Below the pieces are notes generated by a model. It did no database searches, was not told the DNA's origin, and saw nothing but the letters and a program-made list of their open reading frames with translations. The position numbers and the translations under genes were made by a program. Below, piece by piece: positions 1 through 15,339 of a stretch of 64,000 bases of DNA (the stretch's first letter is position 1; each line of letters opens with the position of its first letter). The DNA comes from a virus, in IMG/VR virus record IMGVR_UViG_3300045988_141143; one strand, written 5' to 3'.

Positions 1-70
1 ACTAAGCATATACTATATACTTTTAATTTTTTATATACTTTTGCAATACAAAATACTAATATTATACGTT

Positions 71-361
71 ATGAATAGGATAAAGCAAATACTAAAAGAA
101 CGCAATATTACGCAAAAGGAGTTCGCCGCCCTGCTTGGTATCTCTCCAGTCGGTTTATACCAGCAAATTAAAAAGCCATCTTATCCCACGTTAGAAAAGT
201 GGGCGGCCGTGCTTAATATTCCGATGTGGCAACTTTTCGCCAGCCCTGAAGAGGTTGCAGCCAACACGCAGCAGGAGGGGCAAGGCGTGCGCCTTGTGTG
301 TCCTCATTGCGGAAAACCTTTGCACATTGATTTAGCCAAGAGCGAAGTGTACCAAAATTAA
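71..361 (+). CDS. XRE-family HTH transcriptional regulator with C-terminal CxxC zinc-ribbon
   Basis: HTH 'ITQKEFAALLGISPVGLYQQIKK'; C-terminal 'CPHCG'. The ORF table starts at 41; the ATG at 71 (MNRIKQ) is more plausible. Paralog of 367..711 and 2194..2487. Confidence 0.6.
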   Translation: MNRIKQILKERNITQKEFAALLGISPVGLYQQIKKPSYPTLEKWAAVLNIPMWQLFASPEEVAANTQQEGQGVRLVCPHCGKPLHIDLAKSEVYQN

Positions 362-366
362 AAAAG

Positions 367-711
367 ATGAAATCATACATTAAAGATATACTAACCGAAA
401 AGGGCATTACACAAAAAGAACTCGCCCAGCGCCTCGACGTTAGACAAGCGACGATTTCCGCCGTAATCTCGCGGCCATCGTTTCCAACCTTGGAGCGCAT
501 CGCCGCCGCCTTGGATGTAGAGCCGTGGCAGCTCCTCGCCCCTCCTGCAGTTGTGGAGGAGGTGAAGCAAGCCAGGGCGCAGCGCGAAAGCGGTGTAGGT
601 GGTGCCCTGGTTGGTGTCGTGCGTGTCGGCGGTGAGATCTACACAGCCGACACCGTGCAACAGCTCCGCGCCATCGTGGAGAGGCTGGAGAGAGAAGAAG
701 CAAAGAAGTAA
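367..711 (+). CDS. XRE-family HTH transcriptional regulator (paralog 2)
   Basis: HTH 'ITQKELAQRLDVRQATISAVISRPSFPTLERIAAAL' parallels ORF 71..361. GC-rich 3' half. Confidence 0.6.
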   Translation: MKSYIKDILTEKGITQKELAQRLDVRQATISAVISRPSFPTLERIAAALDVEPWQLLAPPAVVEEVKQARAQRESGVGGALVGVVRVGGEIYTADTVQQLRAIVERLEREEAKK

Positions 712-724
712 AAAACAAAAAAAA

Positions 725-752
725 TCCCGACAGGGTGCAAACCTTGTCGGGA
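725..752. terminator. Bidirectional rho-independent terminator hairpin
   Basis: 11-bp stem tcccgacaggg/ccttgtcggga (one G.U) with a 6-nt loop. A-run upstream and T-run on the opposite strand. Sits between convergent genes 367..711(+) and 797..1204(-). Confidence 0.5.
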
Positions 753-796
753 AAACTTCGGCTAATTTCCTAAGCTGTCAAACAAATAAAACTAAC

Positions 797-1204
797 CTAA
801 AGTATAACGGCCGCCGCCAACTCACGGGCAAAACGGTGCAAAGCGTTTATAATTTTCTCTTTCTGTGCCTGTCGCGGTTTCTTGCGTCCGTGCATATAGG
901 CCCATAGTTGTTTTTGATTTATCCCCGTGATACGCTCCATACCTGCAAGAGATATAAAACTACCGTAATAATACAAAAAGCTTTCGGTATCATACCGCCA
1001 TATAATTGTATATTCGCCAGCCTTCAGAGGTTCGGGCCAGTCCTCGCGCGGCATGTTCTTTTTTATTAACTCGATAGCTCGCACGGTGTCGGCCTTGCAT
1101 GCTTCCACGGTGTCACCAGCCGCCCAAATTCCGGGGCAATTCTCAGAGCATGCGCCGAAACTGTCGGCACTTGCAGAAATAAGCATTATAATTTCGTTTG
1201 CCAT
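797..1204 (-). CDS. hicB: HicB-family antitoxin
   Basis: N-terminal HicB-like segment ('YTIIWRYDTESFLYYYG') and C-terminal DNA-binding tail ('QKQLWAYMHGRKKP...'). Lies immediately downstream of a hicA-like gene. Confidence 0.5.
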   Translation of the reverse strand: MANEIIMLISASADSFGACSENCPGIWAAGDTVEACKADTVRAIELIKKNMPREDWPEPLKAGEYTIIWRYDTESFLYYYGSFISLAGMERITGINQKQLWAYMHGRKKPRQAQKEKIINALHRFARELAAAVIL

Positions 1205-1233
1205 ATCCTTATATATATTATTTCGTTTGTTAT

Positions 1234-1267
1234 GAAAGAGGAAAGGGGCGCGCCCCTTTCCTCTTTC
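1234..1267. promoter_or_regulatory. 34-nt perfect palindrome between hicA and hicB
   Basis: gaaagaggaaaggggcgcgcccctttcctctttc is its own reverse complement. It lies between the hicA stop (1273) and the hicB start (1204). Confidence 0.6.
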
Positions 1268-1272
1268 TTCTG

Positions 1273-1451
1273 CTAAATTCCAATCGCTCGCGCTATGCTC
1301 CGCCGTAACGGCTCGGGCACCTCCTTTGCCCCATGAAAGGGGACAGGGGCGAGAGCTTTCCGCCCTTGGTGTAAAAGTAGTGCGAGCCTTCGGCGTGGTC
1401 GAACTTCCAGCCCTTGGCCTTGATTCTTCGGTGAAATTCTGTGTACTTCAT
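1273..1451 (-). pseudogene. hicA: HicA-family toxin interrupted by a 1-nt frameshift
   Basis: N-terminus 'MKYTEFHRRIKAKGWKFDHAEGSHYFYTKG' matches HicA. The conserved C-terminus 'GRKALAPVPFHGAKEVPEPLRRSIARAIGI*' is in the +1 frame, starting at AAGGGCGGAAAG (~1355). Frame 0 gives a non-homologous tail that stops at 1293. Confidence 0.6.
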
Positions 1452-1569
1452 TGCTTTATATGTTTTATTTGTTTGACGTTGCAAAGGTAGTAAAATTTCT
1501 ACCTTTTACCAAATATTTTTGCAATTATTTTTGCTTTCGTCATTATTTTTTTCTTTTCACCTTATTATA

Positions 1570-1800
1570 TAGGCGCACGGCTGCACCTCTGCGCCATCGT
1601 CGAGAGGCTGGAGCAGGGCAGCACACCACCACCGCGGACTACTTCGCCACCGTTCAGGCATCCACAGCAGCCACCGACGAGCAACAGCACACACGACCGC
1701 CACACCCTCGCCCCGTCTGGTATGCCTCACGCCCTGAGCTGCGCACCCTCTCCCCATCCAGGGCGCACCCTCTACCGCCTGAGTGCGTCCGCATATATGA
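1570..1800. other. GC-rich remnant containing a 22/23-nt copy of the 3' end of regulator gene 367..711
   Basis: 1591-1613 'gcgccatcgtcgagaggctggag' versus 668-690 'gcgccatcgtggagaggctggag'. About 65% GC island in an AT-rich non-coding stretch. It translates to '..RLHLCAIVERLE..' without a proper start. Confidence 0.3.
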
Positions 1801-2193
1801 TAAGTTTTAGCTAAATCGGGTGCACGCAAGGCTCTCCAGTGCGGCGGCGCTCTCGCCTGTGAATCGAAGTTGCAAGGGAAGTTTGCAGGATGCGATTGCT
1901 CTAATTATCAATTATTTAGGTGTTCCTCTTGGGATGGCTTTTACAGGAGTGATTTTTAGTTAAGACATTGATTATTAACTATTTATAGGGGTAAAATAAT
2001 AATTCAGATACAACAAAAAAAATAGATAATATGCCTCTATTTTTACAAAAAAATACAAAAGAAAACTCTGCGAACAGATAAAACTATACTCTTTTGAACA
2101 GAAATAAACGTATATAATAATTATTTTTCAGAAAAACTTGCAAAATACAAATATATGTATTAACTTTGCAGCCAAAACAATACTAATATAAAC

Positions 2194-2487
2194 ATGAGAA
2201 CGAAAATAGACATTCGTCGCGCCATAAAAGAGCGCGGTTACACCATTACGTCTTTCTGTCAGAAGTTCGACCTAAAGACGCAGAACATCATTCAGAATTA
2301 CATCAAAGGCAACCCTACAATAAAACGTTTGGAAGACCTTTGCGAGAAACTGGATTGCGACATCACTGATTTGTTCTATCCAATAGGCGATTCGAGCGAT
2401 GCACAGTCTACTATCAACACCACCGCTTTATGTCCTCATTGTGGTGCAAAGGTTCGGGTCGGTGTGGTGCTCCTGCCCGAAGAATAA
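2194..2487 (+). CDS. XRE-family HTH regulator with C-terminal zinc-ribbon (paralog 3)
   Basis: HTH-like 'YTITSFCQKFDLKTQNIIQNYIKG'; C-terminal 'CPHCGAKV' as in ORF 71..361. Confidence 0.55.
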   Translation: MRTKIDIRRAIKERGYTITSFCQKFDLKTQNIIQNYIKGNPTIKRLEDLCEKLDCDITDLFYPIGDSSDAQSTINTTALCPHCGAKVRVGVVLLPEE

Positions 2488-2557
2488 GAAAATCCCACGG
2501 CAAGTCTTTTTGTGCATGCCGTGGGAAATGTTAAGGCTTTTGTGTGCAAGCCAGCCT

Positions 2558-3001
2558 TTAAGACTCCAGCTCGCCGCCAGGTTTCTGACCGCCGCCTTCA
2601 GTGGTGGAGCCGCCGGGCTTCACGCCACCCGTGAGGTCGTTGCCGGCAAGGATGACCTTGAGGTCATCGGTGACGAGGGAGCGCATGTAGCTGTAGGGGT
2701 TGCCGATTTTGTGCTGCGCCTTGTAGGCCTTCATCACGGCGAGGTAAGCCTCCGTGCCCTTGGCCGACGTAGCCGACGGGCGGTTCTGCTTCCACCAAGA
2801 GGAGGCGAACTGCGATTTCTTCGTAAACGAAGATTTCACCGTCTGCTGTTTCTCACTGTTCGGCTGCACGCATCCGTGATAGCCAGCCGAATACATCTTA
2901 CCCGTGCGTTTGTTGACACCAATATAAGTAGTGTCCTTTTTGCACAGTTTGCCACTAATGGAACTAACCAAGTGGCTTGGAACAATCTTTGCCATACGCA
3001 A
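2558..3001 (-). CDS. Hypothetical protein with a Gly-rich C-terminal tail shared with the HU-like protein at 24288..24839
   Basis: C-terminus 'GGSTTEGGGQKPGGELES' versus 'GGGEQKPGGNPPEIES' of ORF 24288..24839. The overlapping plus-strand ORF 2399..3004 has antisense-like composition. Confidence 0.4.
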   Translation of the reverse strand: MRMAKIVPSHLVSSISGKLCKKDTTYIGVNKRTGKMYSAGYHGCVQPNSEKQQTVKSSFTKKSQFASSWWKQNRPSATSAKGTEAYLAVMKAYKAQHKIGNPYSYMRSLVTDDLKVILAGNDLTGGVKPGGSTTEGGGQKPGGELES

Positions 3002-3173
3002 TAAATTTTTCCGTGAAACATTGTCCCTAAAAAGGGGCGTTAATACACTCAGAGCAAGTCTACTGAAAGTCTACTGAAAGTTCACTGACGTTGCTCATAG
3101 TGTAAAGGTACGAAAAACGTGCGTGAAACATCGGACATAAAAAATAATTACTAACTAAAATAACAGATTTATT

Positions 3174-3758
3174 ATGAAGAAAATTTTCAGTTTTTTGCTC
3201 ATGTTAGCCATGATGCTTGCCATGGGCGCGAGTGTAGCGAGCTGTAGCAGTAGCAGTGACGATGAAGGTGGAGAAAAAAATCCTCCAGAAGAAGAGTATG
3301 TCGCAAAAGAAAGCAAGTTTTGCGATGCCTTGAGAAAATTCAAGGTATCAGGGTTTGACTACCATCAATACCAATATGTCAGTAAATTCTCGCTGCATAG
3401 CGAGGCTCGCAGTGGAATAGATGCCACCGACCGATGGGAGATTGGAATGTATATAGCAAACGACCCAGGTCTGGATAAGTGGGACGGCACATACCAGTTA
3501 GACCAACTTTGGGGTACGCTCTACGGCTTTGAAAATGGGTACGAGGTGACAAAGGCATATTTAGGTACGGAAGATACTCTCCCAGTGAAAGGAGCATGGA
3601 TAAAATTCACCTACTTGCACAAAAACGACAAATACGGCAACAAGATATACACCATAGAGCTGCATATCGACGAAATGAAGGAGAAAAACGGCGACTACGC
3701 ACGCGACATCAACATCACATATACTGGTTCGATTAGTGGCGGCATGATAGAATATTAA
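3174..3758 (+). CDS. Lipoprotein (signal peptide + lipobox)
   Basis: N-terminus 'MKKIFSFLLMLAMMLAMGASVASC' followed by a Ser/Asp/Glu-rich linker. Confidence 0.55.
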   Translation: MKKIFSFLLMLAMMLAMGASVASCSSSSDDEGGEKNPPEEEYVAKESKFCDALRKFKVSGFDYHQYQYVSKFSLHSEARSGIDATDRWEIGMYIANDPGLDKWDGTYQLDQLWGTLYGFENGYEVTKAYLGTEDTLPVKGAWIKFTYLHKNDKYGNKIYTIELHIDEMKEKNGDYARDINITYTGSISGGMIEY

Positions 3759-3994
3759 AGATATATGGGTGAAAGTTTGCATGTTTCGCAAACTTTGCTT
3801 ACCTTTGCAGTGCTATAATGTGACTCGAAGTTTCAAATAGAGAGTCATAATCTAAAATTAAAAGTATGGATCCCTGCTATTCGTGAGAATGGCAGGGATT
3901 GTTATATGTTTTTTCTTGAAACGACCAAATTTTTTCGTTTCCAATTATTTCCTAAGAAATAAAAGGAAATAAATGGAAACGAGTTCTGCCCCAA

Positions 3995-4276
3995 TCAACA
4001 GAGCACGACAATATGATTCATCTTCAAGATATAAGCAAAGATGAAATAGTTGATGATGCTTCCCAGGATGATGACGAGGGTGTATCGCACAATATCCTCC
4101 CACTCGAACTTTGCCAAATGATAGTGTTTGTATTGATATACCTCTCTACATATCATTACAGGCAAAGCAAGCGGACCTACAAATATACTGACAAACAGCC
4201 AACAGGCGAGACCGATGAGGTCGCGCTTGTTGAGGGTGATGAGGTTTCGGAGAAATGTCTTCATACGCAGAGCCAA
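3995..4276 (-). CDS. Small membrane protein
   Basis: Two hydrophobic helices. Overlaps the end of the upstream membrane-protein ORF and may be one gene split by a frame change. Confidence 0.3.
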   Translation of the reverse strand: MALRMKTFLRNLITLNKRDLIGLACWLFVSIFVGPLALPVMICREVYQYKHYHLAKFEWEDIVRYTLVIILGSIINYFIFAYILKMNHIVVLC

Positions 4277-4788
4277 TAGGTGAAATATACGTCAATGAAG
4301 CCCGCCATCTCTGCCCAATACCAGGGTTTGTAGAATGATGCCCTGCGGTCGAAGATGTAGAGGCAGAGAAGGTACTCTGCCAGTACGATGAGTGTCATCA
4401 TCCAGCATACGGACAGACTCCAACCTACACATCCTATGGCGGCTACGATGGCTCCTCCCTTATGGACAGGGTAGGCGTCGGCATCGAGATAGTTGGGTGC
4501 CGCACCGACAAAGAGCAGTCCTGCGCAACCTATGAAGGCGAGGCACTGAATGCCCTTGCCCGTGTCGAGCATACATATCATCATGGCGATGGCTGTGAAG
4601 AACATGATAAAGGTGAAGAGAAGTCCATAGTTGTGCTTCGTCTTGTTGCCTATCACCTCGCTGCCCGTGCAGTTTTGCAACTGATAGTAAATGTCGCTTA
4701 TCATGTCGGGTGCTCCGAAGCGCATAAACGACAGAAGAAGGAATCCTCCAAGCAGGAGGAATGAGATAATACTTAATATACACATCAT
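4261..4788 (-). CDS. Multi-pass membrane protein
   Basis: Four to five hydrophobic segments. No recognisable catalytic motif. Confidence 0.45.
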   Translation of the reverse strand: MMCILSIISFLLLGGFLLLSFMRFGAPDMISDIYYQLQNCTGSEVIGNKTKHNYGLLFTFIMFFTAIAMMICMLDTGKGIQCLAFIGCAGLLFVGAAPNYLDADAYPVHKGGAIVAAIGCVGWSLSVCWMMTLIVLAEYLLCLYIFDRRASFYKPWYWAEMAGFIDVYFTYWLCV

Positions 4789-4880
4789 AATCTTTTTATA
4801 TTAATGGGTTTTGGGAATACTGACCATTTTCGTGAGGTCACGAATATGGTTATCATTTTCCCGGCATCAGGAAAATGATA

Positions 4881-5399
4881 TTATACACTCATCTCAAGCA
4901 TCTTCGGGTAGCCTGCCTTGTAGTCGTAGGCTTCCACCTCCTCGATGGTCGTCAGCTGACTGACTGCTTGCTTATGGCTCGCCGTAACGTTAAAACACTC
5001 GTAAGCATAGTTTTCGATGCTTCGCATGAGTACTTCGGCTTGCGCACATGGCATAGTAAAAGATACACCTTTTAGCCATATAGCGATATTTTCCTCGCCA
5101 AGCGCAAACTTGTCAGCAATATTCTGTCGTAAGTCCATGCGCTTTTCGACGTTAGGAGAATTAGTGTCATCCTTGTTCCATGAAATAAGCATACCGTTTA
5201 AAATAAAGCCGTTTACCTTGTCTGAGGTGTCGTAGGCTGTTATCTCTTCCTCCTTCTTTGAGATGGCATAAGCCAATTCTGCCGCCTTTACTCTTTCATC
5301 GAATTTAGCGTAAGCAGCCTTCACCTCGTCCTCATCGAATAGCGATGTCGGGATGCTACATTCATAACACCGATAAGCTCCTATCTCGCTATCCAACAC
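4881..5399 (-). CDS. Tail-fibre assembly/chaperone-like protein (paralog A)
   Basis: C-terminal ~60 aa ('ENYAYECFNVTASHKQAVSQLTTIEEVEAYDYKAGYPKML') is homologous to the C-terminus of ORF 5974..6519. Lies downstream of the tail-fibre gene. Confidence 0.4.
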   Translation of the reverse strand: MLDSEIGAYRCYECSIPTSLFDEDEVKAAYAKFDERVKAAELAYAISKKEEEITAYDTSDKVNGFILNGMLISWNKDDTNSPNVEKRMDLRQNIADKFALGEENIAIWLKGVSFTMPCAQAEVLMRSIENYAYECFNVTASHKQAVSQLTTIEEVEAYDYKAGYPKMLEMSV

Positions 5400-5559
5400 C
5401 TCGCCAAGATGGTAGATGGTGATTGTTTCACTCTTGTCTGAACTACCGATTTCATATTTTTTTTAAAACTGGTCAGCAGGAATAATCGTACTGACAAACG
5501 AAATTGTTTTTTTCATAATTTTACCTTTCTTTTAAAGTTACTTTTTATTCTACTCTCTC

Positions 5560-5961
5560 TCAAAGAGGCAAATAGGTCAGCAAGCGTAGACAGGCAGAAA
5601 ACGAGTAGGCGACGGGCTTTCTGTTGGTGCCAATCTGATACGCGCAGTAAACAACAAACGTGGCACTACCCTGCGTTGAAGTCCATCTAATGGTTTTCTT
5701 AACGAAAGTTTCATAGGCTGTGGCAGTGCTTGCATCAAACAATTCCGTCAGAATTTCCTTGATAGTCTCAAGGTTAGCTACATGTACTAATTCCTGTCCT
5801 ATCGACATAATGAAACCACGCTGTTCTTCACCACCTAACGTAAGAATTGTGTTATATGCGTAGTCAAAGGCTGGCAAGGGGAAAGCCTGCGCTTGTCCCT
5901 CCACCATCTTCATCACTGGTATTCGCAGCGTGAAGTCGTTACCTTTAACGATTTTCTTCAT
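5560..5961 (-). CDS. Hypothetical protein
   Basis: Intact ORF between the two chaperone-like paralogs. Coding-like composition. Confidence 0.4.
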   Translation of the reverse strand: MKKIVKGNDFTLRIPVMKMVEGQAQAFPLPAFDYAYNTILTLGGEEQRGFIMSIGQELVHVANLETIKEILTELFDASTATAYETFVKKTIRWTSTQGSATFVVYCAYQIGTNRKPVAYSFSACLRLLTYLPL

Positions 5962-5973
5962 ATAGCTATAAAA

Positions 5974-6519
5974 TTAAATTGTTAGTCGTACTTTTTCGGG
6001 ATAACCTGCCGTAATATCATAAGCTATCAATGAGTCTATCGTCTGTAACTCCGCAACCTTATCAAGATGGGTCTGCGTAACATTGTAGCAGTCTTTGGCG
6101 TAGACCTCTATCTTGCTGATAAGGTCTTGAGCTGTGTCAATAGGCAGGGTATAACACTCACCGTCGAGCCACAGGGTCGTTTCCGTTCTCCCCATTCGTC
6201 TCAGTCGCTCGTTGCCCTGATACACTCTGTCTCTTGTCTCGAAGTCGAGCCAGTGAGCCTCGTCGTTGAGATAAAACGTATTCACCTCTGCGCTCTTATC
6301 GTACTCCGTTATCTGCTCGATGCACTTGATTCTCAGAGCCTCTGTCAGCTGTTCTTCTGTGGGCACCTCATCGGTATTCATACCGAGCAGCACGCAGTCA
6401 TACAGATACTCACCGTCTTCAGTCTTGCGTTCGTTCACAGCAAGACGCACCTCATTATTTTTCCATGTCGCAACCTTCGTTTCCAAAGGCGTAGCATACA
6501 ATTCCTTATATGTTATCAT
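5974..6519 (-). CDS. Tail-fibre assembly/chaperone-like protein (paralog B)
   Basis: 'EVYAKDCYNVTQTHLDKVAELQTIDSLIAYDITAGYPEKV' parallels paralog A. Starts 7 nt after the tail-fibre stop. Confidence 0.4.
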   Translation of the reverse strand: MITYKELYATPLETKVATWKNNEVRLAVNERKTEDGEYLYDCVLLGMNTDEVPTEEQLTEALRIKCIEQITEYDKSAEVNTFYLNDEAHWLDFETRDRVYQGNERLRRMGRTETTLWLDGECYTLPIDTAQDLISKIEVYAKDCYNVTQTHLDKVAELQTIDSLIAYDITAGYPEKVRLTI

Positions 6520-6525
6520 ATTCGT

Positions 6526-9168
6526 TTAGTAATTATTGTTGCTCATTATTCCTACGTCAAGATTACCGAAAGTGGTTTCTGTCTGTATCGAATAGATTCT
6601 TCCATACCCTGCGAGTGTCATGTACTTAGCGCCGAAGGTGGCTATCTGTACATAGAAGGATGGCCTTGTCACGCTCTGCCCCTTCTTGATGGCAGGCACC
6701 AGCTTTGTGTTGTCGTAGGCCGTGGCATCCCCAGTAAGGAACACGCCATCCGCAAGATTTGTCAGCGCACCATTCTTCACCATTGTGCGGCTCGTAAAAG
6801 TCCTTCCGTCGGCTGCACTCGCAAGGTCGTAAGTACCCAATCCGTTTGCCGAGTCGGCTACTATCTTTCCGTTCACTCTTGGCGCTGAGTAACGATACAG
6901 GGTTGTCGTTTTGCCCGTCGCACCCTTAACGAAAAGAATGTAGTTGTTATCCTTCGTTGCCGTGTACCACGACTTGGTGGTATCAACCCACGGTAGGTCT
7001 ACATTCTCTCCGAGCGGAGTCGTCAGTCCTGCGTCCTCTGCTTTGATATATTGCGCAGAAGTTATCTTCGCGTCGGTCTTGCTTAGCGAGGCGATACCAG
7101 CAGGGCCGAGGTCATAGAGAAAGTTTCCGTTGTCGTCGTAGTACGACAGCACGGCCTGTCCCGAACTGTTCAGACCGAAGCGGATGTTTGCAGTTCCTGC
7201 CTTGCCGTAGATATTGATAAGGCCATCGGCTATCCTTACCATCTGTCCGTTGTGTCCTTGGGATGTAAGCATCTGCGCCAGTATCAGAGCCGCATTGATG
7301 GCTCCGTCTTTAAAGAGAGCGGCTGTCGTTGTCTGACCGGTAGAGAGCGTGTTCTCCACCTTGATTTTCTCGCCATACAGAGTTACTCCTCTCGACGTAA
7401 TCTCAAGTCCTGCCGCCTTTGCTGTGGCTCTGTCGATGAGGTCGGTCTTCCGTTCTGTATAATCAGTAAGTTGTGCGCCTTCCTCCAGTTTCGGCTTTGT
7501 CACCCAAGCCTCAGTATCGCCTGGAACACGTATCAGCACCTTGTCTGGGATTACCTCTGCTCCCTCGCCAGTATAGTCCTCTATTCGCCAATGCACCCAG
7601 TACCGCTTATAGGTCGAGGTGAGTGCGAGCTGTGCGTATCCGTCAGCCCAGCCGTCCGTATATTCGTTTCCTTCGCAGGTTTCTGTATATACATTTGCAT
7701 GAACGCTGTCTCCATAGAGAAAGACGTTGATGTTTCCGCTGCCCTTGGCAACGAAGGAGAACACATAGTCCTGATTCTTTACTATTCTCGCCTGCCCAGA
7801 AAGGGTAGCTGTTGTTGGAAATTTATATTGCAAGACTTCTGTGTACTGAGACTCTGCCGAGTTGTTTTTGTTGTACAATATACCGTAGCAGCCTTCGTAT
7901 TTTCCAAACATAATCAGTCCACTGGCAAGCTGGAGATTGCTTTTGTCAGACGATCTGGTCAGTGTCATCGTGTCCTCCATAAGGTTTCCTCCCACATAGT
8001 CGTAGTCCGTTTCCGCAGGAGTCCAGCCTGTGTACTCGCTTCCTTCTTCAAGCATTGGCATACATATCCATCCGTTGCCCGAGGCAGTATAACCAAAGGT
8101 TCCGTCCACGGTTATGCCATTGTAGACAAAGATATTCACCTCGATAAACTCTGCGTTGCTCGTATTGAAGGTGTAGTTCACCTGCCTCCACTGATTCACC
8201 TCGTTCTCCTTTGTCAGCCCGTACATGTTACCCGAGGTGGCAGTAATTCTGTCCCCTCTATCGCCATTCAGCGCAGCCATTTTGAACACCTCCGATATAA
8301 CCTGTAAGTCCTTCGTGTCGCACTTTATCCATGCCGAGAAAGTGTAGTCTGTATTCTTCTTCACAGCGATGCCGTTGACGGCCTGTCCCCAGAAAAGACC
8401 CTTGTACTGAGGCGTTCCGTTACCCGTCACCGAGAAGCGGATGGCATTATGGCCGTTTACGCCCTGTGTTATCGTAGGCTGGAAGATGCCGTTCATATAA
8501 TATATATCACCCTTCCTCGTCAGTGACGTATCTCGCAGTAGGTTATGCCGTCCTTGCTGGCTCTGAGTCACACTGAGAGTAATCTCCTTTGCTGTCTGCT
8601 TGATAGTAGATGTGTAGGCTTTGAGAACGGTAGGATTGCTTCCTTTGAGGTCGTTCTCCAATGCCTTAAATTGCGACTGATACTGCTTTGCCGTAGCCTT
8701 TACACTACCCATATACTTCGACACGTTCACCGAGAATGGAACTTGCGCAAAATAGAGAACACCAGTGTAAACAAATTGTGCGACCGCATAGCCTGATGTT
8801 GCAGAAACCTGTCCTTGATTTACCCCGTCAACAATTACATCGTTCTTTGCAATATTACTGCCTGATACAGATACTTCGATATATCCATCCTTCTGTGTTG
8901 CACTACATTTGCAATTTACACACAAATCATCCCTTGAGTTAATATTGCTGCATTCATTAGAGATATTCAGGTTACCCTTCATTATCTTTACCTTCGCAAC
9001 CTTTGATATGCTAACAGGTACAATTCCACTATCATCTGTGTCAAAAACGAGCGGAGCGTCTTCGACAATAATAGAAACGGCATCCTTGCCAGGCTTGCCT
9101 TGCGGGCCTGGCGCACCATCCTTTATCGCCGCTATCGTTATCTGGCCCCTCGCCAATAATACTGCCAT
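6526..9168 (-). CDS. Tail fibre / receptor-binding protein (880 aa)
   Basis: N-terminus 'MAVLLARGQITIAAIKDGAPGPQGKPGKDA' carries a collagen-like GxxGxxG segment and an anchor motif shared with ORF 9214..10257. Long Ser/Thr/Asn/Gly-rich beta-rich body. Confidence 0.6.
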   Translation of the reverse strand: MAVLLARGQITIAAIKDGAPGPQGKPGKDAVSIIVEDAPLVFDTDDSGIVPVSISKVAKVKIMKGNLNISNECSNINSRDDLCVNCKCSATQKDGYIEVSVSGSNIAKNDVIVDGVNQGQVSATSGYAVAQFVYTGVLYFAQVPFSVNVSKYMGSVKATAKQYQSQFKALENDLKGSNPTVLKAYTSTIKQTAKEITLSVTQSQQGRHNLLRDTSLTRKGDIYYMNGIFQPTITQGVNGHNAIRFSVTGNGTPQYKGLFWGQAVNGIAVKKNTDYTFSAWIKCDTKDLQVISEVFKMAALNGDRGDRITATSGNMYGLTKENEVNQWRQVNYTFNTSNAEFIEVNIFVYNGITVDGTFGYTASGNGWICMPMLEEGSEYTGWTPAETDYDYVGGNLMEDTMTLTRSSDKSNLQLASGLIMFGKYEGCYGILYNKNNSAESQYTEVLQYKFPTTATLSGQARIVKNQDYVFSFVAKGSGNINVFLYGDSVHANVYTETCEGNEYTDGWADGYAQLALTSTYKRYWVHWRIEDYTGEGAEVIPDKVLIRVPGDTEAWVTKPKLEEGAQLTDYTERKTDLIDRATAKAAGLEITSRGVTLYGEKIKVENTLSTGQTTTAALFKDGAINAALILAQMLTSQGHNGQMVRIADGLINIYGKAGTANIRFGLNSSGQAVLSYYDDNGNFLYDLGPAGIASLSKTDAKITSAQYIKAEDAGLTTPLGENVDLPWVDTTKSWYTATKDNNYILFVKGATGKTTTLYRYSAPRVNGKIVADSANGLGTYDLASAADGRTFTSRTMVKNGALTNLADGVFLTGDATAYDNTKLVPAIKKGQSVTRPSFYVQIATFGAKYMTLAGYGRIYSIQTETTFGNLDVGIMSNNNY

Positions 9169-13879: not shown

Positions 13880-14128
13880 CTAAGACATTTTCTTCTCTAC
13901 GATAGCTGTCACATCAGACACAAGCTGTAAGTCTTTTGCCTCTTCTGGCGAAATCTTGATATGGAACATGGTTTCGGTCTGAAGAACGAGGTCGAGAAAG
14001 TCAATAGACTCAAGAGCAAGATCATCACGCAGGTTAGCGCTGTCGGTCACTTCTGCTGTCGATGCCCAAGGTGTGCGCAGGCCTTCAACGATATTGAACA
14101 CCCGCTGACGTATATCTTCTTTGTTCAT
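13880..14128 (-). CDS. Acyl carrier protein
   Basis: 82 aa, acidic. 'DDLALESIDFLDLV' matches the phosphopantetheine-attachment region (DSL to ESI). Start overlaps the KAS stop (ATGA). Confidence 0.6.
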   Translation of the reverse strand: MNKEDIRQRVFNIVEGLRTPWASTAEVTDSANLRDDLALESIDFLDLVLQTETMFHIKISPEEAKDLQLVSDVTAIVEKKMS

Positions 14129-15339
14129 GATGGTTGATATTTAGAGATGATGAATGATGAGTTGGTGCCTCCGAAGCCAAAGGCATTGCAGAGGATATGG
14201 TGTGCTGAGTACTCGCGTGACTGCATGACGAGATTGAGTTTGGGAAAAGCATTCTCGGCTGTGGTAGCCGCACCGAAGACAGTGTCTGTGTTGAGCATCA
14301 TGGATGCTTGAACGGCCTGCGATACACCAGCCATCCAGCACTCGTGCCCCGTCATGCCCTTGGTGGCTACGATATAAGGGCTCTCGGGGAATACCTTTCC
14401 GATGGCTTCTGCCTCTGCAGCATCGCCCAGCTCTGTACCTGTGGCATGGGCAAGGAGTACATCTATCATTCCTGCATCGAGTCCTGCCGATTCTATGGCC
14501 TTAATCATTGCCACTTCTTCCTGATAAGCATCCGGGGTACAGATGTTGGTGCCGTTGGTGGAGAAGCCGCAGCCGGAAAGTTCTGCCACGGGCGAGACTT
14601 CATAATCCTCGAAACGCAAGCTGTCGGAAGGCTCAAGAATGACACAGGCTGCACCACCCGAAGGAGCAAGACCATTGCGGCCTTTGCCGAAGGGCTGCAC
14701 CTTGTCGGGCGAGAAAACGCCCATGGCATCAAACGACAGCATGGAGAAGGGACCTGTCTCCTGTGCGCCAACGACAATCACCATGTCGGTTTGGCGCGTA
14801 TCAAGAAGCATCTTGGCAAGACCGATGGCATGACCTCCTCCGGCACAAGCCCCGCTGACGGTAAGCGAAAGTCCTTTCAGTCCGTAGATAGAGGCGAGAC
14901 TCATGCTGACGGTGGAATTGAGTGTACGGAACACTGCGCCTGCCCCTAAACGTCGGGTGTCGCGCTGTGTAATGGCAGTTGTCATTGCCTGATAGTTGTC
15001 TCCAGCCGTAGTGTCGTTGCTGACGATGACCGATACATTGTGAGACTGCAAGAACTCGGGAAGAATATTGGCTTCCATCAGAGCCTCGTTGACGGCAGAT
15101 AAGGAATATAGGGTCGGTTCGGAAAGACATTGCCGTTGAGCCCTGGTGAGTTCGGATAGCTTCCAAGGGTTCGGGTCATTTATCTTTCCGCACAGGTCGG
15201 ACTGATAACCTTTCTCGCTACGTGCGGGGTCGTGGTGAAGACCGCACTCTCCATACGCCAGCTTCTGTGCGACGGAAAAGGTATCGTTGCCAAGACAGGA
15301 AACGATACCTGTGCCTGTGATTAATATTTTTCTATCCAT
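14125..15339 (-). CDS. Beta-ketoacyl-ACP synthase (KAS I/II, FabF/FabB-like)
   Basis: Active-site Cys in 'VSGACAGGGHAIG'. His motifs 'LAHATGTELGD' and 'KGMTGHECWMAG'. C-terminal 'FGFGGTNSSFII'. Confidence 0.75.
   Translation of the reverse strand: MDRKILITGTGIVSCLGNDTFSVAQKLAYGECGLHHDPARSEKGYQSDLCGKINDPNPWKLSELTRAQRQCLSEPTLYSLSAVNEALMEANILPEFLQSHNVSVIVSNDTTAGDNYQAMTTAITQRDTRRLGAGAVFRTLNSTVSMSLASIYGLKGLSLTVSGACAGGGHAIGLAKMLLDTRQTDMVIVVGAQETGPFSMLSFDAMGVFSPDKVQPFGKGRNGLAPSGGAACVILEPSDSLRFEDYEVSPVAELSGCGFSTNGTNICTPDAYQEEVAMIKAIESAGLDAGMIDVLLAHATGTELGDAAEAEAIGKVFPESPYIVATKGMTGHECWMAGVSQAVQASMMLNTDTVFGAATTAENAFPKLNLVMQSREYSAHHILCNAFGFGGTNSSFIISKYQPS

Follow-up and report, generated by a model that had tools for sequence, protein, structure and literature searches.

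A frameshifted hicA toxin gene, an intact hicB and a predicted intergenic RNA hairpin in the toxin-antitoxin operon of a gut Bacteroidales phage

What is to be made of a toxin-antitoxin operon in which the toxin gene is broken, the antitoxin gene is whole and a long perfect palindrome lies between them? The question is raised by a stretch of viral DNA of 64,000 nt (IMG/VR record IMGVR_UViG_3300045988_141143), the whole of which we call the window; it is from a tailed phage of gut Prevotella-type Bacteroidales. On the minus strand of positions 713–1513 the window carries a hicAB operon, that is, a type II toxin-antitoxin operon with the toxin gene hicA placed before the antitoxin gene hicB, and a 34-nt palindrome occupies positions 1234–1267 in the spacer. 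A first-pass annotation had offered toxin decay or a sequence error for the gene, and an operator or an attenuator for the palindrome. On balance we favour an account in which the locus combines a hicA pseudogene, an RNA terminator hairpin, an operator on the -7 promoter box and pairing between the two ends of the mRNA. The toxin gene has the following parts:

1273–1451, minus strand: hicA pseudogene; codons 1–35 are in the frame of the ATG, and the remaining HicA homology, VPFHGAKEVPEPLRRSIARAIGI followed by a stop, is in the -1 frame
1293–1451, minus strand: hicA open reading frame (ORF) as written, 52 aa, made up of HicA residues 1–35 and a 17-residue out-of-frame tail
1346–1349, minus strand: lesion site, a run of four C on the coding strand (four G on the plus strand), where intact relatives have five

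Translation of the minus strand from the ATG at 1451 gives MKYTEFHRRIKAKGWKFDHAEGSHYFYTKGGKLSP and then a tail without homology to HicA, ending after 52 aa at a stop at 1295–1293, while the alternative (-1) frame reads ..VPFHGAKEVPEPLRRSIARAIGI up to a stop at 1275–1273. The HicA frame is left after Pro35, and the ORF as written is without residues 36–59; the last strand and the C-terminal helix are missing. With the Pfam profile HicA_toxin (PF07927; gathering cut-off 27 bits), the written ORF reaches 20.4 bits, confined to profile positions 3–30; the C-terminal piece alone scores 18.9 bits, and the repaired protein 43.9 bits over positions 3–58 of 58. Since the written gene lacks a complete domain, it is a pseudogene of the HicA toxin family. 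The frameshift that had been read from the letters is thus found again by two-frame translation and by the written and repaired profile scores, and the tail, which had been called non-homologous, lies beyond the first half that the hidden Markov model (HMM) matches, the repaired protein spanning the whole domain.

The repaired HicA is 95% identical to P0001 (64 member sequences; carries PF07927), where the closest intact relatives read ..GGKLSPPVPFHGAKEV.. in this region. At the DNA level the sole difference that matters is TCGCCCCCTG in the intact relatives against TCGCCCCTG in the window, a change from five C to four at 1349–1346 on the minus strand, where the relatives have TCG CCC C|CT GTC CCC TTT CAT (alignment A1). 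The earlier reading had placed the break at ~1355 and had called for a +1 frame change. The break is real and one nucleotide does restore the frame, but the C run at 1346–1349 lies 6–9 nt away, and for a ribosome the shift would be -1; recovery of the frame needs either such a -1 shift or a 1-nt insertion in the DNA. The evidence supports hicA as a genuine pseudogene in which one C of the five-C run is deleted, a loss that would arise most simply by replication slippage. Residues E21, G22, S23 and H24 of HicA are invariant in alignment A4, and the GSH motif, including His24, is present in the window product; the histidine of this motif is catalytic. The toxicity of the written gene is probably lost.

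Could the missing C be a homopolymer error of sequencing or assembly, the real phage gene being intact? A C/G run that differs in length by 1 nt is where such errors are classically found, and scans for the exact context found five C in all 13 other matches (4 IMG/VR and 9 metagenome contigs); locus L113 encodes a HicB identical to that of the window, yet has five C and an intact hicA. Even so, the four-C allele (C4) is found in the window and in two further, non-identical assemblies. One, L114 (ENA ERZ1743998 NODE_346; SPAdes, 41.7 kb, coverage 28), has the C4 run together with the same 34-nt palindrome and is 99.78% identical to the window, with 3 mismatches and 3 gaps in 2.7 kb. The other, L003, a Logan contig of SRR3993002, is 99.93% identical to the window with 1 gap, and also encodes the exact 52-aa hicA product. 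Because C4 stands in three non-identical assemblies, it is to be read as a circulating allele and not an assembly error; in addition, a run of 4–5 bases is not error-prone in short-read consensus, and the nonsense mutations and large deletions in hicA of relatives are not produced by errors. We regard an error as very unlikely. Genuine decay, which the earlier reading had set against a 1-nt assembly error, is favoured by C4 in L114 and L003 and by independent hicA lesions beside an intact hicB. C4 is a minority lineage allele that defines a recently arisen sub-lineage, carried by at least three non-identical assemblies.

Translation offers another way in which the toxin might survive, for the deletion puts the conserved Pro-Phe codons into the register C_CCU_UUC (1341–1335, minus strand), a canonical X_XXY_YYZ heptamer. 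A -1 slip of the ribosome there would yield a full-length HicA changed only by P36L and V37S; it would partly bypass the frameshift, and the allele would be an attenuated toxin rather than a null. The heptamer is correctly framed and lies 4 nt 3′ of the C run (the deleted base being 4–8 nt upstream), the independent C-run deletion in locus L200 makes the same arrangement, and a small GGGCA/UGCCC hairpin can be read from the sequence after it. This downstream structure is weak, however, and nearer than the usual 5–9 nt. The heptamer is moreover the conserved Pro-Phe codons (CCC TTT C) of intact genes and so was not selected for slippage, and alleles other than the deletion ones are in frame, such that the frameshift is not conserved among relatives. 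The efficiency of -1 frameshifting on such a motif without a stimulator is expected to be low, and we hold this explanation to be highly improbable.

A genuine pseudogene has company in the family. Loci gathered through hicB number 105, of which 25 are viral and 80 genomic (~106 with the window); their hosts are Prevotella, Bacteroides, Alloprevotella and Muribaculaceae, uncultured Prevotella being the closest. At 17 of these ~106 loci hicA is nonsense-mutated, frameshifted, truncated or deleted, with hicB whole:

hicA nonsense mutation: L034 and L053 (both at Trp15), L058, L104
hicA frameshift: window, L049, L076, L103, L111
hicA internal deletion or removal: L027, L033, L052, L062, L065, L077, L079, L088

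The reverse test, on viral loci found through hicA, gave full-length hicB at 72 of 74. In the protein database ~10 of 75 HicA clusters are disrupted against ~3 of 120 HicB clusters, and further frameshifted HicA forms and two HicA-HicB fusions are found there (P0024, P0031, P0041, P0047, P0053, P0056, P0058, P0067, P0076 and P0078). P0047 (L200, 1201–1371; also L201) belongs to a chromosomal hicAB between arginine decarboxylase and PNPase genes, present on 4 contigs from at least two samples; L200 has lost one C from the same five-C run, independently of the window lineage. At L033 (1440–1500; uncultured Prevotella UMGS287) unrelated DNA replaces hicA, the promoter and the 5′ half of the hairpin; the breakpoint is the palindrome centre, and hicB (93% identical) remains with a partnerless 3′ arm.

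Toxin decay with antitoxin retention, as the first-pass annotation had phrased it, therefore agrees with the counts of 17 of ~106 loci with a damaged hicA and at most 2 of 74 without a full hicB, and is supported by at least 12 independent lesions of hicA in relatives with an intact hicB. Anti-addiction is the idea advanced for type II systems in which the toxin is inactivated and the cognate antitoxin kept. The window resembles other type II toxin pseudogenes and orphan antitoxins in having a dead toxin and a kept cognate antitoxin; relative to general type II toxin decay, the bias is here counted within one family, and two lineages have lost the same base of the C run.

Two side observations concern these damaged genes. 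L034 and L053, which are distantly related, share the TGA stop at Trp15 of hicA. Natural fusion ORFs also occur: P0076 joins HicA residues 1–49 in frame with HicB by way of the translated palindrome region, and P0078 is joined after an early frameshift.

The remainder of the operon has these parts:

797–1204, minus strand: hicB antitoxin gene, intact, 135 aa, with an N-terminal HicB-type domain and a predicted C-terminal helix-turn-helix (HTH)
1482–1489, minus strand: -7 promoter box TACCTTTG of Bacteroidetes type, predicted from the sequence, with the TTTG of the -33 element at 1510–1513
1483–1506, no strand assigned: inverted repeat AAAGGTAG-N8-CTACCTTT (GGTAG-N8-CTACC) over the -7 box, candidate HicB operator
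713–752, minus strand: operon terminator, a hairpin at 725–752 followed by a T-run, common to the convergent HTH gene 367–711

That hicB is intact, as first reported, follows from its uninterrupted frame of 135 codons (1204–797) and from the identical protein on 6 public contigs. It lies directly downstream of hicA in one operon, a layout shared by 72 of the 74 loci ascertained through hicA. Fold comparison finds an N-terminal HicB/UPF0150-type fold, and the gene presumably still makes a DNA-binding antitoxin; a search of NCBIfam returned nothing for HicA or HicB. The promoter motif TAnnTTTG, which follows the Bacteroidetes consensus as quoted in PMC7366714, is present upstream of hicA in nearly all relatives, and a related palindrome, (A)ATAGAAAnnTTTCTAT, overlaps the -7 box across the family, often in two copies. 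At the other end, the hairpin of the operon terminator appears in both the minimum free energy (MFE) and the centroid folds of the whole predicted transcript, and the same element is found in relatives; Rfam places there, at 717–765, a sub-threshold NsiR1-like match (E 0.048).

What, then, is the palindrome for?

1234–1267, minus strand: 34-nt perfect palindrome, separated from the true hicA stop by 5 nt and from the hicB ATG by 29 nt; predicted RNA hairpin

The self-complementarity first noticed here is exact: the element is a perfect 17+17 inverted repeat without a spacer, with a GC core, GGGGCGCGCCCC, between A-rich and U-rich arms. Nowhere else in the window does it occur (100 shuffles gave 0 matches at ≤3 mismatches), and no perfect hairpin-forming repeat in the 64 kb is longer, the next best having arms of 11 nt; being unique, it was rejected as a dispersed REP-like repeat. 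Folded as RNA it has -29 kcal/mol (z = -4.6), and a terminator scan flags it as terminator-like on both strands. In Rfam, searched to E = 1, the only matches of the palindrome were to microRNA-like hairpins and fell below threshold; no known RNA family was recognised. The spacer that holds it had been described as usually short, which does not hold for this family: it is 68 nt in the window and ranges from 2 to 85 nt. One arm resembles the lesion region at 17 of 19 positions; alternative pairing in an attenuator, or a duplication, was rejected for this likeness, which is unseen in relatives (where the arm ends CCATC) and would be due to chance in C/T-rich sequence.

When the palindrome was looked for in other hicAB pairs, as had been proposed, a hairpin at or just after the hicA stop was found to be kept in shape and not in sequence, in loci with spacers of ≥25 nt. 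Close relatives have compensatory cores (GGGGCGCGCCCC, GGGGGCGCCCCC, GGGGCATGCCCC and GGGCTAGCCC), and their palindromes read GAGGAAAGGGGCGCGCCCCTTTCCTC, ..GGGGGCGCCCCC.., AGGAAAGGGGCATGCCCCTTTCCT or AGAGGGAAGGGCTAGCCCTTCCCTCT, or are forms with loops of 2–7 nt, at loci whose HicB is 92–99% identical. In distant clades the last four or five codons of hicA and their complement after the stop form the hairpin, with the stop codon in the loop (for example GAAAGTACGGAGTgTAAgaACTCCGTACTTT). An alignment of 26 stop-codon hairpins by MAFFT and RNAalifold recovered only 3 pairs, the loop lengths differing and the 3′ arms falling out of register, and conservation was assessed instead by statistics free of register. 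A sliding fold of 44 nt was used to locate the strongest structure of the operon. Where the spacer measures 25 nt or more, this structure coincides with the hicA stop at 40 of 70 loci, against 12% by chance; where the spacer is shorter, it does so at none of 17. A perfect stem of ≥6 bp surrounds the stop codon in 32 of 50 loci with spacers of 25–60 nt, while control codons have 3.4 bp.

Because the pairing is kept while the sequence drifts, and because one arm is coding in other clades, the element is to be read as an RNA hairpin. The palindrome is most likely the local form of a family-wide hairpin at the 3′ end of hicA that would act as an internal terminator or attenuator specific to hicA. 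A leaky intrinsic terminator at this point would lower transcription of hicB relative to hicA, and such a toxin-heavy design would explain why toxin-killing mutations are frequently selected; toxin loss in the family is strongly one-sided and recurs even at the same base run, as that design predicts. The stop codon in the hairpin loop suggests, further, that translation of hicA is coupled to read-through into hicB.

An element of the DNA itself, whether an operator for HicB or another dimeric regulator, a cruciform or a recombination site, would fit the perfect two-fold symmetry of 1234–1267 without a loop, the palindromic centre (CGCG, GCGC, CATG or CTAG) kept in several relatives, and the L033 deletion of hicA that breaks at this centre. 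Yet both arms change among loci with HicB 92–99% identical, loops of 2–7 nt in L007, L011, L012, L019 and L025 are not palindromic, and in other clades one arm consists of coding sequence, the loop holding the stop codon. The palindrome also lies ~210 nt downstream of the promoter, while the family-wide palindrome sits on the -7 box. We consider a DNA element quite unlikely, and the HicB operator would more likely be the palindrome over the -7 box than that at 1234–1267. Of the two roles first suggested, then, the attenuator is favoured by the covarying shape and a published precedent (described below), and the operator is disfavoured by the drift in sequence.

A second pairing in the same transcript joins its predicted ends, in a perfect 16-nt inverted repeat around hicAB:

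1462–1477, minus strand: 5′ arm GTCAAACAAATAAAAC; its first base, 5 nt beyond the TTTG of the -7 box, is the predicted start of the mRNA, and its last base is 10 nt ahead of the hicA ATG
777–792, minus strand: 3′ arm GTTTTATTTGTTTGAC, which lies between the hicB stop, 4 nt away, and the operon terminator

The 5′ arm, GTCAAACAAATAAAAC (1477–1462), is the exact complement of 792–777, and the helix between them is in both the MFE and the centroid folds of the predicted transcript. Over the family, the 3′ window beats every control window as partner of the 5′ leader in 48 of 93 loci. The arms vary between clades (for example GTGTCAAATCAATAAC, CGTCTTAATTAAT, GTTCTAATAAACAAGAGA and GTGTTCTGATAAAACC), and the start of the helix is exactly 5 nt after TTTG in 40 distinct loci, among which Watson-Crick pairing is 98–100% at positions 5–16 and 15–45% at positions 1–4. 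When 38 distinct loci are aligned without gaps, 93.8% of cells pair, compared with 36–48% after sliding; each of the 16 pairs shows changes in both partners, and none of 500 shuffles attains these figures. From the hicB stop to the 3′ arm there are 0–25 nt. A simple scan found a canonical terminator ~20 nt beyond this arm in 24 of 44 distinct loci but missed the imperfect stem of the window clade, which the fold of the whole transcript shows. Bacteroidetes mRNAs are without Shine-Dalgarno sequences and depend on A residues at -11 to -15 (PMC7366714). These residues of hicA fall inside the 5′ arm, which favours an RNA duplex; it may shield the 5′ end of the mRNA, hide the A-rich leader of hicA, or both.

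Several observations weigh against the account favoured here. Support for the C4 allele comes from consensus assemblies and not from reads, and another assembly might share the sample of the window. The membership of HicB in its family rests on fold similarity of moderate Z, and searches of Pfam, NCBIfam and PDB with its sequence gave no match at threshold. The U-rich stretch of the palindrome is the 3′ arm of the stem, and no free run of 7–8 U follows; RNA polymerase may therefore terminate there weakly or not at all, and the hairpin might rather hold back 3′ exonucleases or be a site of processing. Its perfect 34-nt form is confined to the C4 lineage, relatives having 26 nt, and it is eroded in L200, where hicA is dead, and lengthened in the window, such that the link between hairpin and toxin is not simple. 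For the mRNA ends, the register of the alignment was set by the longest complementary seed, which favours pairing, and the arms are near-perfectly Watson-Crick (483 pairs, with 3 G-U, 1 A-C and 3 transversion mismatches), which would also fit a DNA repeat kept uniform by recombination. The count that would separate RNA pairing from DNA symmetry, G-U against A-C mismatches, is 3 against 1 and underpowered.

Of the alternatives that these points bring up, one concerns the hairpin: without terminating, it might block 3′-to-5′ decay, such that a hicA-only fragment outlives hicB, or it might be a processing site. Other operons are known in which an intercistronic hairpin stabilises the cistron before it, and here the stem is long and stable (-27 to -29 kcal/mol), has no free U tract and stands exactly at the 3′ end of hicA across the family. 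In many relatives, however, 3–5 T follow the hairpin, the roles of terminator and stabiliser are not exclusive, and the only experimental hicAB precedent assigns termination to such a hairpin (PMC11878559). We rate a non-terminating role as doubtful and keep the terminator as our reading.

The other alternative concerns the 16-nt repeats, which might be the DNA recombination sites of an invertible or mobile cassette and not the arms of an RNA duplex. Invertible segments with short inverted repeats are common in Bacteroidales, and the arms are almost perfectly complementary yet clade-specific, as are repeats homogenised by recombination. As in the invertons of Bacteroidales, short inverted repeats flank a segment beside a promoter; unlike in invertons, the promoter is outside the repeats, a single orientation is seen and no recombinase is adjacent. 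The orientation to the promoter is the same in all ~105 loci, a search for the inverted junction in IMG/VR and the metagenome collection, where the clade is represented, gave 0 matches, and no recombinase gene was called within 1.5–3 kb in the window clade. Moreover, the distance from the -7 box to the helix is constant at 5 nt and the terminator always comes after the 3′ arm, which places both arms inside the transcript. Recombination sites are on these grounds unlikely, and an RNA duplex is preferred. A transposon-like cassette bounded by the 16-nt repeats was also considered and rejected, the promoter being outside the repeats in every locus.

An RNA duplex at the ends and a hairpin in the middle would together permit a bolder scheme, in which the hicAB mRNA is gated by its structure. 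Type I toxin mRNAs of the hok/sok type are inhibited by folding back of the 3′ end on the 5′ end. Here too the predicted 5′ end of the mRNA is complementary to the predicted 3′ end, the pairing covaries and it covers the toxin leader; unlike hok/sok, the window has a type II operon with a protein antitoxin and no antisense RNA is known; the analogy is one of function and does not imply kinship. In the full-length transcript the duplex would mask the A-rich hicA leader, and mainly HicB would be made. Once transcription stops and the 3′ end is degraded the duplex would be lost, decay would halt at the stop-codon hairpin, and a stable, translatable hicA-only mRNA would remain. We put this scheme forward as speculative, with the chances rather against it; if it is true, a type II system could activate its toxin without proteolysis of the antitoxin.

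How does the operon compare with hicAB systems that have been studied at the bench? The nearest likeness is the HicA^T^B system of IncI2 mcr-1 plasmids, in which a G/C-rich hairpin followed by UUU terminates transcription between hicA and hicB and hicA mRNA is ~10-fold above hicB mRNA, while in a second plasmid subfamily the ORFs overlap or abut and the hairpin is missing (Lin et al., Nucleic Acids Res 2025; PMC11878559). Both HicA^T^B and the window have the toxin first, a G/C-rich intergenic hairpin with a short U tract, and a canonical terminator with a long U run behind hicB, and the sister subtype without a hairpin resembles those loci of the present family whose spacer is <25 nt (0 of 17 with hairpins). 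They differ in the spacer, 24 nt in HicA^T^B and 68 nt in the window, and in that the hairpin of most relatives encloses the hicA stop. The window further differs in the TAnnTTTG promoters of its host phylum, in the lack of Shine-Dalgarno use and in its dead toxin, and pairing of the mRNA ends is not reported for the HicA^T^B plasmid system. A tblastn search of HicA against 72,556 plasmids found at best 47.5% identity, in Pseudomonas, with 12 matches, all on plasmids predicted to be non-mobilizable; no IncI2 plasmid was recognised among the 12, as judged from mobility predictions and not from replicon types. The locus would thus seem to work like HicA^T^B without being a member of that clade.

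The hicAB locus of Escherichia coli K-12 has two promoters, of which P2 is repressed by HicB (PMC11878559). It shares with the window the order hicA then hicB and the availability of a promoter palindrome for autoregulation; its HicB has a C-terminal DNA-binding domain, for which the predicted HTH is the candidate in the HicB of the window. Unlike in E. coli K-12, no second TAnnTTTG promoter is seen in the window sequence before hicB or inside hicA, and with no promoter for hicB only, it would be for RNA structure to fix the balance of antitoxin to toxin.

Known biology can account for both main features: toxin decay for the frameshift, and for the hairpin the internal terminator of hicA reported in 2025. 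What the present family adds is that the internal hairpin is not peculiar to enterobacterial plasmids, since it covaries in hicAB operons of gut and rumen Bacteroidales and their phages. The 2025 study raised as an open question how HicA is freed when HicB is stable (PMC11878559); the complementary mRNA ends, found in about half of the family, would bear on that release if they act in RNA.

As to the surroundings, the window encodes a 1983-aa tape-measure protein with PhageMin_Tail, a C5 methylase and many ORFans; no tRNA genes were found in it, and a megablast of its positions 1–8000 against INPHARED gave no match. The hicAB operon stands among small genes for Xre-type regulators near the end of the contig, where the genes 71–361, 2194–2487 and 367–711 form a cluster around it. 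The Xre-type HTH proteins of 71–361 and 2194–2487 end in motifs of the CPHCG.. type, possibly a zinc ribbon fused to the HTH. Upstream of the hicA promoter, the GC-rich non-coding segment 1584–1613 is 90% identical over 30 nt to 661–690, the 3′ end of the HTH gene 367–711 (..AIVERLE..), and looks like the remnant of a paralogue. Only a few tens of bases separate the end of the window (1–70) from that of the independent contig ERZ1743998 NODE_346; both lie upstream of a gene for a 96-aa HTH protein, and this common end may be a genome terminus or a repeat that breaks assemblies. Farther away, a beta-ketoacyl synthase gene (14125–15339, minus strand; PF00109 E 8e-26, PF02801 E 6e-20) is unusual cargo for a phage.

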